Positions 46,112 to 47,099 of a DNA stretch of 64,000 nt are shown in pieces. Location: assembly GCF_030013205.1 (NCBI RefSeq), contig NZ_CP122648.1; one strand, 5' to 3'. Origin of the DNA: Escherichia coli. Its GTDB lineage: Bacteria; Pseudomonadota; Gammaproteobacteria; Enterobacterales; Enterobacteriaceae. How positions within the stretch are numbered: position 1 is the first letter of the stretch; every line of letters begins with the position of its first letter. The notes below the pieces were generated by a model. That model was given only the letters and a program-made list of their open reading frames with translations, made no database searches and was not told the origin of the DNA. Both the position numbers and the translations under genes were made by a program.

Positions 46112-46762
46112 TTAATTTGATTTATTCGCATCCATCAGCGCTTTTAACTGCTCCGGCGTAAACGGTGGTTTGCGTCGGTGCAACATCGCATGGCAATTAG
46201 GGTACACAGGCAGCAAATCATTAACTGGATCCAGCTGGTAATCCTCTTTAATGGCTGACAGCGGCACCAGGTGATGCACATGGATAAAGCCTTCAGCGAT
46301 ATCACCATAGATCTTCACCAGATCAACACCGCATACGTTGCACTGGCATCCATGATGTTCGACCGCTTTATCTCGGGCCTTTTTATCGCGTTCATAGCGG
46401 TTTACTGTCACCTTTATCGCCGCACCTTCAAGGTATGTCTCCTGCGACGGCAACTCATCCGGGAACAGAACGTCGGCTATGGGAGCCGCAGCGGCTTTAT
46501 CCAGATGAATATGAAATCCCTGCTCTATGAGTAGCTTGACACATTTAGATTTTATTCCGCCGGTGAAATCCGCAGGGGTAAATTGCGTCCCCGTCATCAA
46601 TGTCGCTGCGATGCCAGCAATCGCCTTCGAGGGGTAACGTCGGCCATGATATTCAATCTCATACAACCGCGCAGGCTGGAACTGATGAGTTTCTCCCGCA
46701 TCCCATAAATGGATAGCTTCGATGATATACCGCCGCGGAAGATGATCAGGGAGTTTATTCAT
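46112..46762 (-). CDS. HNH-family nuclease with an uncharacterised N-terminal domain
   Basis: 216-aa ORF; C-terminal CQCNVCG...HVHHLVP...N...CHAMLH (beta-beta-alpha-Me / HNH with Zn-finger cysteines); N-terminal about 110 aa unassigned. Confidence 0.6.
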   Translation of the reverse strand: MNKLPDHLPRRYIIEAIHLWDAGETHQFQPARLYEIEYHGRRYPSKAIAGIAATLMTGTQFTPADFTGGIKSKCVKLLIEQGFHIHLDKAAAAPIADVLFPDELPSQETYLEGAAIKVTVNRYERDKKARDKAVEHHGCQCNVCGVDLVKIYGDIAEGFIHVHHLVPLSAIKEDYQLDPVNDLLPVYPNCHAMLHRRKPPFTPEQLKALMDANKSN

Positions 46763-46841
46763 GGAGAATGTCCTTATACGTTCTCAGAACAGGCAGCAAA
46801 AAAACAAATGAGATCAAGGTAATATATCTTCACTTGCAGGC

Positions 46842-47066
46842 TTGAACAGCAGAAAATTTGCGAGCATGATCGCAATTATTTCACTGCCAGGGATATCAAT
46901 AGCTTCCAGTAAATCGCTACAGCAGGCAATTGCCAATATAAAAATCTGGCACAAGGGTGAACAGCGCGCGCCGCATAAGCCATTGTTATTGCTATACGTA
47001 TTAGCGGGATACCTGAATGGACATCCGCGCCTTTTCGATTATTGTACCTCTGAAGACAGAAGATAA
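46842..47066 (+). other. Short ORF of uncertain reality, divergent from the HNH gene; possibly a 5' gene fragment
   Basis: 74-aa ORF ...WHKGEQRAPHKPLLLLYVLAGYLNGHPRLFDY, ending 34 bp from the convergent RadC-like gene. Confidence 0.2.
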
Positions 47067-47099
47067 AAGTGAAAACAGGTGTGATGTGGTTGTGACGGG

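Follow-up and report, generated by a model that had tools for sequence, protein, structure and literature searches.

What kind of gene is the small HNH-nuclease gene that follows nanS in this part of the Escherichia coli chromosome, what does its N-terminal half do, and did it come with the antirestriction genes that lie on its other side? The gene in question is a minus-strand open reading frame (ORF) of 216 amino acids (aa) in a 64,000-nt stretch of E. coli DNA, called here the window; all coordinates below are positions in this whole stretch. It comes next after nanC, nanM, and nanS, which are on the plus strand and end at 46104, and it is followed by a 74-aa ORF on the plus strand. A prediction made earlier from the sequence alone (the original prediction) had described it as a stand-alone HNH nuclease, possibly a modification-dependent restriction enzyme, with an N-terminal part that could not be assigned. 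We propose, with a probability of roughly 0.6, that this gene, which we call head-HNH, codes for a stand-alone type IV-like nuclease in which an N-terminal head domain would target DNA and the HNH domain would cut it. We further propose that it is the surviving half of a two-gene cassette, probably weakened by a C187Y substitution, and that it stands beside a dead gene for an EcoWI-like enzyme.

The 216-aa ORF is a real gene and not a chance ORF because more than 1,000 homologues of its protein (1,054) are recorded, because dN/dS among seven E. coli head-HNH alleles is 0.05-0.19, and because the Prokaryotic Genome Annotation Pipeline (PGAP) calls it. The call was made on the DNA of strain K_EC180, which is identical to the window over 46000-47200, where PGAP annotates an 'HNH endonuclease' (WP_001037966.1) and then a pseudogene of the type described below. 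The head-HNH gene is under purifying selection in E. coli and is functional in the species. Its translation contains the motifs CQCNVCG...HVHHLVP...NCHAMLH, and these, together with a profile match to the HNH domains of ScoMcrA and EcoKMcrA, bear out the HNH/beta-beta-alpha-Me signature that had been noticed in it.

The N-terminal residues, about 110 of which had been left unassigned, turned out to be assignable, since about 90 of them form the ScoMcrA_N domain of Pfam, PF26345. In a single-sequence search of the PDB, residues 24-86 matched residues 29-92 of ScoMcrA (5zmm) with an E value of 1e-3, and residues 123-198 matched the HNH domain of EcoKMcrA. With a profile built from 38 N-terminal domains, the match to 5zmm covered ScoMcrA residues 4-93 (E 3.8e-9), and a profile of the whole protein matched ScoMcrA residues 4-94 and 456-534 and EcoKMcrA residues 177-271. 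The N-terminal domain has the fold of the ScoMcrA head domain, and because the profile matches both ends of ScoMcrA the protein corresponds to ScoMcrA minus its sulphur-binding domain (SBD) and its SRA domain. In a newer Pfam, PF26345 is precomputed for homologues at 99% identity and for more distant ones, and PF26345 together with PF01844 is recorded on homologues; in our own Pfam scan, with a release that did not report PF26345, the sole match to the protein was a weak one to HNH (E 0.006). The full-length AlphaFold2 model has two confident domains and between them a linker of low confidence, with a pLDDT (predicted local distance difference test) of 43-51 at residues 91-120 and below 50 at residues 92-102 and 110-112. 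The window protein has H163, H164, N189, H191, and H195, none of which varies among 61 homologues, so that the catalytic His/Asn/His residues are in place. In the head domain the conserved residues are H26, F28, Y34, Y43, K46, F66, and G68-G69. The protein therefore has the ScoMcrA_N-HNH architecture (PF26345 + PF01844), that is, a small separate domain joined to an HNH nuclease as had been predicted, and its closest solved relatives, ScoMcrA and EcoKMcrA, are type IV enzymes. The PADLOC check suggested for the locus gave only weak matches to mREase_IV models, to PDLC03662 in the head part (E 1e-4) and to PDLC03656 in the HNH part (E 2.5e-4). The crystallographers of ScoMcrA described its head domain as a small one with a flexible attachment whose function is not known (PMC6224610). 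In the literature we found no later paper that assigns a function to this domain and no paper that characterises any head-HNH protein; the family is recognised computationally, by Pfam and PGAP.

The company that the head domain keeps is the main, though indirect, argument for its role. When 1.84 billion representative proteins were searched with a profile, the domain turned up in 3,850 clusters at 50% identity, and its partners in 84 longer clusters were HNH, HNH_2, EVE, NOV_C, McrB-type AAA_5, nSTAND3, SRA, DUF3427, McrB_N, AspBHI_N, Mrr_N, and NUDIX; a Foldseek search of AFDB50 gave a similar picture. Nearly all the architectures that include the head domain are those of type IV restriction or defence. 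The HNH half, approximately aa 97-216 with the EGA..VNRYERD..AR helix, recurs at about 50-55% identity behind various N-terminal domains, and about 70 of 80 loci fetched from other species had another N-terminal domain in front of the same HNH module, including Mrr_N, EVE, DpnI_C, and DUF3427, with many unassigned. An Mrr_N-HNH protein of Klebsiella aerogenes, for example, is 55% identical to the window protein over residues 97-210 only. Since the head domain takes the position that known modification sensors take in these sister proteins, it is likely to be the targeting domain of a type IV-like nuclease. The arrangement is also that of a type IV system, a separate domain fused to a nuclease without a cognate methyltransferase, and no methyltransferase gene is among the genes adjoining head-HNH in the window. 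In other strains and genera the neighbours are McrBC-family, Hsd, Zorya II, AbiE, Wadjet, and MkoC genes and further small sensor-HNH genes. Of the modification-dependent restriction originally suggested, then, the kinship with type IV enzymes is upheld, and the dependence on modification is something that we infer. In K. aerogenes (locus positions 3260-5636) an Mrr_N-HNH gene, an SBD-HNH_2 gene, and a head-HNH gene lie side by side and adjoin hsdR; the HNH module of the first is also that of the third (55% identity), with a different N-terminal domain in front of it. Plasmids of Klebsiella and Serratia carry a homologue annotated 'HNH endonuclease' that is nearly full length (alignment over aa 20-210) and 37% identical; Klebsiella contributes 107 of the 216 matching records, and 131 of the 216 plasmids are predicted to be conjugative.

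In the proposed mechanism, DNA would be targeted or sensed by the ScoMcrA-type head domain of about 90 residues, which a flexible linker joins to the McrA-type HNH domain. This HNH domain, which has the beta-beta-alpha-metal fold and a Cys4 zinc site to stabilise it, would nick or cut nearby, probably as a dimer, so that the family would be one of modification-dependent nucleases directed against foreign DNA. Head-HNH would be the left half of an old two-gene cassette by nanS, and the right half would be a divergent EcoWI-like SBD-HNH gene whose product cuts phosphorothioated DNA. The cassette appears to decay differently in different lineages, and in the window the SBD-HNH gene was apparently cut where the DNA of the variable island begins.

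The remains of the right half are in the 74-aa ORF (46842-47066), which carries APHKPLLLLYVL and which had been taken for either a partner protein or a gene fragment. It is a fragment. Residues 25-69 of this ORF match positions 2-46 of NCBIfam NF045808, the family of EcoWI-like phosphorothioate-dependent SBD-HNH enzymes, with an E value of 1.1e-16; PGAP calls a pseudogene, 'phosphorothioated DNA-binding restriction endonuclease, missing C-terminus'; and in an alignment with the intact 290-aa gene of an O121:H19 strain there is ATA in place of the ATG at 46899, and the homology stops after 47043. In tblastn searches the stub was 98-100% identical to the start of intact E. coli genes of 283-290 aa. 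Thus what is left has the sequence of a sulphur-binding domain and is not a complete SBD plus HNH_2 frame with a start codon, and the partner suggested for head-HNH is in fact a dead SBD-HNH stub. Neither the TTG start further upstream nor the final 8 codons of the 74-aa ORF have homology to anything. The stub keeps the 'HK' residues, which are among the sulphur-recognition residues of EcoWI (PMC7461809). Intact SBD-HNH genes are at the same place in O121:H19 16-9255, strain 117, DAX4, and MB50. The accession of EcoWI, which would show whether the nanS-linked neighbour is EcoWI itself, was not found in the papers or the supplement, and molecular weights of 33.2-33.3 kDa do not discriminate.

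In the region between the two divergent genes the sole block conserved across genera is an element made of a TTGAAC hexamer and a palindrome, which a terminator scan flagged as a stem-loop. The palindrome has the form TTGCGAGCAT(G/C)ATCGCAA, 10 nt downstream of a TTGAAC/TTGATC hexamer, and is found upstream of every EcoWI-like SBD-HNH gene examined, the flanking intergenic DNA having diverged. It is also at the solo SBD-HNH genes of Salmonella, Enterobacter hormaechei, Buttiauxella, and an E. coli integrative conjugative element (ICE). By its sequence the element looks like a promoter with an operator, or like a 5' hairpin, and it survives in the window though the gene is dead. The idea that the palindrome is a shared regulator of the gene pair was rejected since the solo SBD-HNH genes have it too.

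The divergent pair itself, head-HNH and SBD-HNH separated by 136-180 bp, occurs in E. coli, in Klebsiella (sp. R445, K. quasipneumoniae, and K. aerogenes), in several species of Citrobacter, and in Enterobacter JUb54, and its chromosomal sites differ: nanS, Wadjet (R445), GH43/type VI secretion, prpR/iclR, and hsdR (K. aerogenes). A second pair, 57% and 51% identical and 4 kb apart, is in the E. coli ICE. SBD-HNH without head-HNH occurs in Salmonella, E. hormaechei, and Buttiauxella, and head-HNH without SBD-HNH at 7 of 11 species-representative loci and also in Pantoea stewartii and C. freundii. Obligatory pairing was therefore rejected on a hidden Markov model scan of 91 loci and seven context look-ups, in which both genes were found alone. 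By itself, EcoWI restricts dnd+ plasmids in vivo, and as a homodimer it cuts phosphorothioated DNA in vitro (PMC7461809). Because EcoWI works alone and because each gene occurs alone, we regard the two as type IV enzymes that are independent of each other and travel together. In C. freundii (locus 5001-10651) there is a head-HNH paralogue of 54% identity and, 0.5 kb away from it, a dnd-associated methyltransferase (TIGR04096) in a cluster of the phosphorothioate-modification type that also has DndA, dnd-associated protein 4, and an SMC-like protein; the site of this paralogue is the ADH/HerA-flanked insertion site that the E. coli ICE also uses.

The state of the cassette was surveyed in 5,426 complete E. 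coli genomes, and 5,034 of these match some part of the composite locus. About half of the 5,426 retain sequence of the HNH gene, and approximately 1,230 carry it at full length. Both genes are full length in 326 genomes, at least one of which (MB50) has a frameshifted HNH gene; the HNH gene with an SBD stub, as in the window, is present in about 900; and about 1,400 have only a 3' remnant of the HNH gene, its last 45 codons or so, left by a deletion of about 583 bp. In a sample of 60 genomes, 32 keep query positions 36-81 only, and in K-12 only traces of the cassette are left. The deleted O121:H19 allele reads ...GGTACACAGGCAGCAAAAAAACAAATGAG, and the deletion is exactly that expected from recombination or slippage between the two copies of the direct repeat ACAGGCAGCAAA. 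We considered whether this deletion arose only after C187Y, which is unsupported because some 3' remnants have mismatches to the Tyr allele and others have none. Other forms of decay are frameshifts (MB50, P0002, and P0006), the N-terminally truncated P0003, and, in the cluster representative P0001, Tyr187 combined with G113D, residue 113 being invariant in the alignment of 61 sequences. A different deletion has left its trace in K-12. The first five codons of K-12 YthB (MNKLPAHLSRQNCKIASTNLSEIIPRRAAVLK; RV308 locus 4024-4122), MNKLP, are the start of the head-HNH gene, and a deletion of about 635 bp joined them to the small ORF whose ATG, in the window, overlaps the stop codon of the HNH gene (TAATG; MNAHLSRQ...). 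YthB thus appears to be a by-product of deletion that would be translated from the start signals of the lost nuclease gene.

The window copy of head-HNH is full length and has a substitution in its zinc site. In the family this site is made of four cysteines (CxxC...CxxC), C141, C144, C187, and C190, all of them invariant or nearly so. The window protein has only C141, C144, and C190, and so the zinc-finger cysteines that had been noted in it are there but for one, the third ligand being Y187. Among 108 homologues with the xPNCH motif, position 187 is Cys in 105, Tyr in two (both from E. coli), and Gly in one, and in all six other full-length E. coli alleles compared it is Cys, encoded by TGC or TGT. 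WP_032256287.1 of DAX4 and WP_001586610.1 of S1bESBLb are examples of Cys187 alleles. Loss of a zinc ligand is expected to destabilise a zinc-stabilised HNH nuclease. Since Cys187 is so widely kept in homologues and in the other E. coli alleles, the window copy is probably impaired, that is, weakened or inactive through C187Y. The Tyr allele is not rare: Tyr187 is in 14 of 28 sampled full-length E. coli rows, about half, 942 genomes match a 45-mer of the Tyr allele at 99% or more, and approximately 600 genomes carry this allele at full length. The window allele differs from the Cys allele of S1bESBLb in three residues (C187Y, L111V, and Q205E) with a dN/dS of 0.11, and because the differences are so few and the ratio is low, decay beyond C187Y is not detectable.

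The last part of the question is whether head-HNH came with the genes to its right. To the right of the 74-aa ORF the minus strand has, over 47100-49283, radC/JAB (47100-47591), an antirestriction gene, DUF932, and DUF905, with an IS66 fragment further along; the two ORFs, their motifs, and these neighbours are all where they had been reported. The original prediction placed head-HNH in the slot in which CP4-like elements carry cbtA/cbeA, and here the junctions say otherwise. When the window, five other truncated alleles, and one intact allele were aligned, the truncation at 47043/47044 was common to all the truncated alleles, with coverage breakpoints at query positions 1043-1060, and the 3' flank of the CP4-like radC begins at a window-specific break 4 nt past this shared truncation. 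To the right of the same HNH gene and SBD stub, MRE162 has a complete CP4-like end with cbeA/cbtA, strains IrN, TUM11353, and XJ55 have an AbiE toxin-antitoxin pair, and VTB96935v has another restriction enzyme. Since the truncation point is shared despite these differing right-hand neighbours, the head-HNH gene belongs to the flank on the nanS side. It does not travel with radC or cbeA-cbtA, and the view that it is cargo of a CP4-like element (CP4-57/CP4-44 type) was rejected by this comparison. The CP4-like module of the window is cut off 56 bp after radC and all beyond is lost. That the region is a variable island was correctly recognised: the nanS/nanM flank is a defence and island hotspot adjoining the fim-nan region. 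In other strains Zorya II, McrBC-family, Hsd, and AbiE genes are found in this flank. As for nanS (45097-46104), PGAP in many genomes calls it a partial pseudogene, 'sialate O-acetylesterase, missing C-terminus'. The window ORF is uninterrupted over 335 codons, and this call is probably an artefact of the annotation model and not a real truncation. The features of the locus are collected in the table.

Table. Positions of the head-HNH gene, its parts, and the features around it in the window
Feature	Position	Strand	Details and basis
Head-HNH gene, 216 aa, WP_001037966.1	46112-46762	-	ORF; PGAP 'HNH endonuclease' on identical DNA
ScoMcrA-like N-terminal head domain, aa 4-90	46493-46753	-	Pfam PF26345
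Linker, aa 91-112, low-confidence and poorly conserved	46427-46492	-	AlphaFold2 pLDDT; gapped, variable alignment
McrA/ScoMcrA-type HNH module, aa 113-216	46115-46426	-	includes the EGA..VNRYERD..AR pre-HNH helix
Tyr codon 187 (TAC), at the site of the third zinc-ligand Cys	46202-46204	-	motif VYPNCH
Direct repeat of 12 bp, ACAGGCAGCAAA, two copies	46206-46217, 46789-46800		ends of the deletion of about 583 bp
Divergent intergenic region between head-HNH and SBD-HNH, 136 bp	46763-46898		
Promoter/operator-like element	46842-46875	+	TTGAAC (46842-46847), 10 nt, 18-bp palindrome TTGCGAGCATGATCGCAA (46858-46875)
Dead 5' stub of an EcoWI-like phosphorothioate-dependent SBD-HNH gene, 48 codons	46899-47043	+	ATG->ATA; NF045808, PGAP, alignment
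Junction segment	47044-47099		truncation at 47043/47044; second, window-specific breakpoint after 47047
Small ORF, 29 aa, kin of K-12 YthB	46023-46112	-	PGAP 'hypothetical protein'; ATG overlaps the HNH stop codon (TAATG)

Several points weigh against the reading of head-HNH as a type IV-like nuclease with a targeting head. The head domain is outside the families with demonstrated binding to modified DNA (SRA, EVE/PUA, SBD, NEco, DpnI-type winged helix, Mrr_N, and McrB_N), and its role could instead be in dimerisation, in regulation, or in binding DNA non-specifically. In the nanS-type clade (E. coli, Klebsiella, Citrobacter, and Pantoea) the head domain has A31, E35, S45, V75, and D88, at sites where 146 diverse head domains have S in 99%, D in 97%, P in 99%, F in 86%, and K in 95%, and these changes (S31A, D35E, P45S, F75V, and K88D) could mean an altered or degraded binding of the ligand, or a change of specificity. 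No NCBIfam family scored above its cut-off for the 216-aa protein, the matches to curated defence models are weak, and the type IV-like role proposed for the family is drawn from its relatives. The inactivation of the window copy, for its part, is argued from conservation, and the Tyr allele might retain activity because it is common (about 600 genomes) and has only two other residue differences. This last point also bears on another view, that the gene is a decaying relic without function in this strain and has an intact frame only because C187Y is recent. The neighbouring dead SBD-HNH gene, the frameshifted, truncated, and deleted alleles and the near-complete loss from K-12, the double substitution in P0001, and the change of a residue that is Cys in 105 of 108 homologues would all agree with this. 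Nevertheless, we think it unlikely, because relaxed selection is not detectable in an allele with three differences from that of S1bESBLb and a dN/dS of 0.11, and because so many genomes carry the Tyr allele at full length; moreover, it overlaps with the type IV-like reading, in which the window copy is already counted as probably impaired.

Other explanations concern what the protein does. It is possible, and we say so tentatively, that the head domain is itself a new sensor of DNA modification or DNA state and the head-HNH proteins of about 210 aa a large class of autonomous type IV enzymes with a new specificity, or that ScoMcrA has been split between two genes. The sensor may be linked to phosphorothioate because ScoMcrA has an SBD in the same chain, because head-HNH pairs with EcoWI-like genes, and because of the dnd-type cluster in C. 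freundii. If ScoMcrA were split, head-HNH and SBD-HNH would form a two-protein phosphorothioate-dependent system, for example a heteromer with one strand cut by each, and the window gene would be an orphaned subunit. ScoMcrA does hold a head, an SBD, and the same type of HNH in one chain, and the divergent pair is conserved across genera at differing sites, with a second pair in the E. coli ICE. Nonetheless, taken by itself this arrangement seems to us quite doubtful. EcoWI is active alone (PMC7461809), each gene is also found solo, and head-HNH alleles beside a truncated SBD-HNH still show a dN/dS of 0.05-0.10. All the adjacent pairs belong to one clade, and so their linkage is explained by a single origin and transfer as a unit; a paralogue beside a phosphorothioate-modification cluster, as in C. 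freundii, would be awkward for a phosphorothioate-dependent nuclease. That the protein is an HNH nuclease of a mobile element or phage, of the homing or packaging type, or else a non-specific nuclease or toxin, and so stands apart from restriction, we consider highly improbable. PHROG HNH families do match aa 124-205 (E 3e-7 to 6e-3) and the gene adjoins island DNA, but these matches exclude the head domain, and none of 50,697 phage records covers at least 80% of the protein, the 8 that match reaching at most over aa 75-216 and none into aa 1-74. A phage homing endonuclease was rejected on this coverage. Furthermore, the gene is chromosomal by nanS in thousands of genomes and lies outside any prophage, intron, or intein, it has no conserved immunity gene beside it, and the partners of the head domain are type IV and defence domains.

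The type IV-like nuclease with a targeting head thus remains our preferred explanation, and its consequences differ for the window and for the family. The window copy is annotated, common, probably impaired, and next to a dead gene, and its practical importance is modest; head-HNH in general is a real, widespread, and fairly ordinary gene of defence islands, and in E. coli the DNA beside nanS holds what is left of an ancestral type IV cassette of two genes. If the head domain is a true sensor, however, it would set what thousands of small defence proteins (HNH, McrB-type, and NOV_C-type) are specific for, and a part of ScoMcrA for which the crystal structure gave no explanation would be accounted for.

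Among known systems the nearest is ScoMcrA (Sco4631 of Streptomyces coelicolor; PDB 5ZMM), a type IV HNH endonuclease that depends on phosphorothioate and on 5-methylcytosine or 5-hydroxymethylcytosine. The window protein, with 216 aa as against 561 aa, is without the two experimentally defined sensors of ScoMcrA, the SBD and the SRA domain; its head and HNH are joined directly by a linker of about 20 residues, and its third zinc cysteine is a tyrosine. EcoKMcrA (McrA of the e14 element of E. coli K-12; PDB 6GHC) shares the HNH domain, whereas the N-terminal domains are unrelated (NEco in one and ScoMcrA_N in the other), and EcoKMcrA differs also in having a known target, methylated or hydroxymethylated CpG. 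The 216-aa protein is outside the EcoWI/SprMcrA family (SBD-HNH_2, NF045808), its score being 17 bits against a cut-off of 180; the window's member of that family is the stub, which with its 48 codons and ATA start is without HNH_2. The PUA-wH-HNH proteins, in which a small helical DNA-binding domain is joined to HNH in 224-283 aa, follow the same logic and are in the same size class, and the EVE-head-HNH architectures found here run parallel to them.

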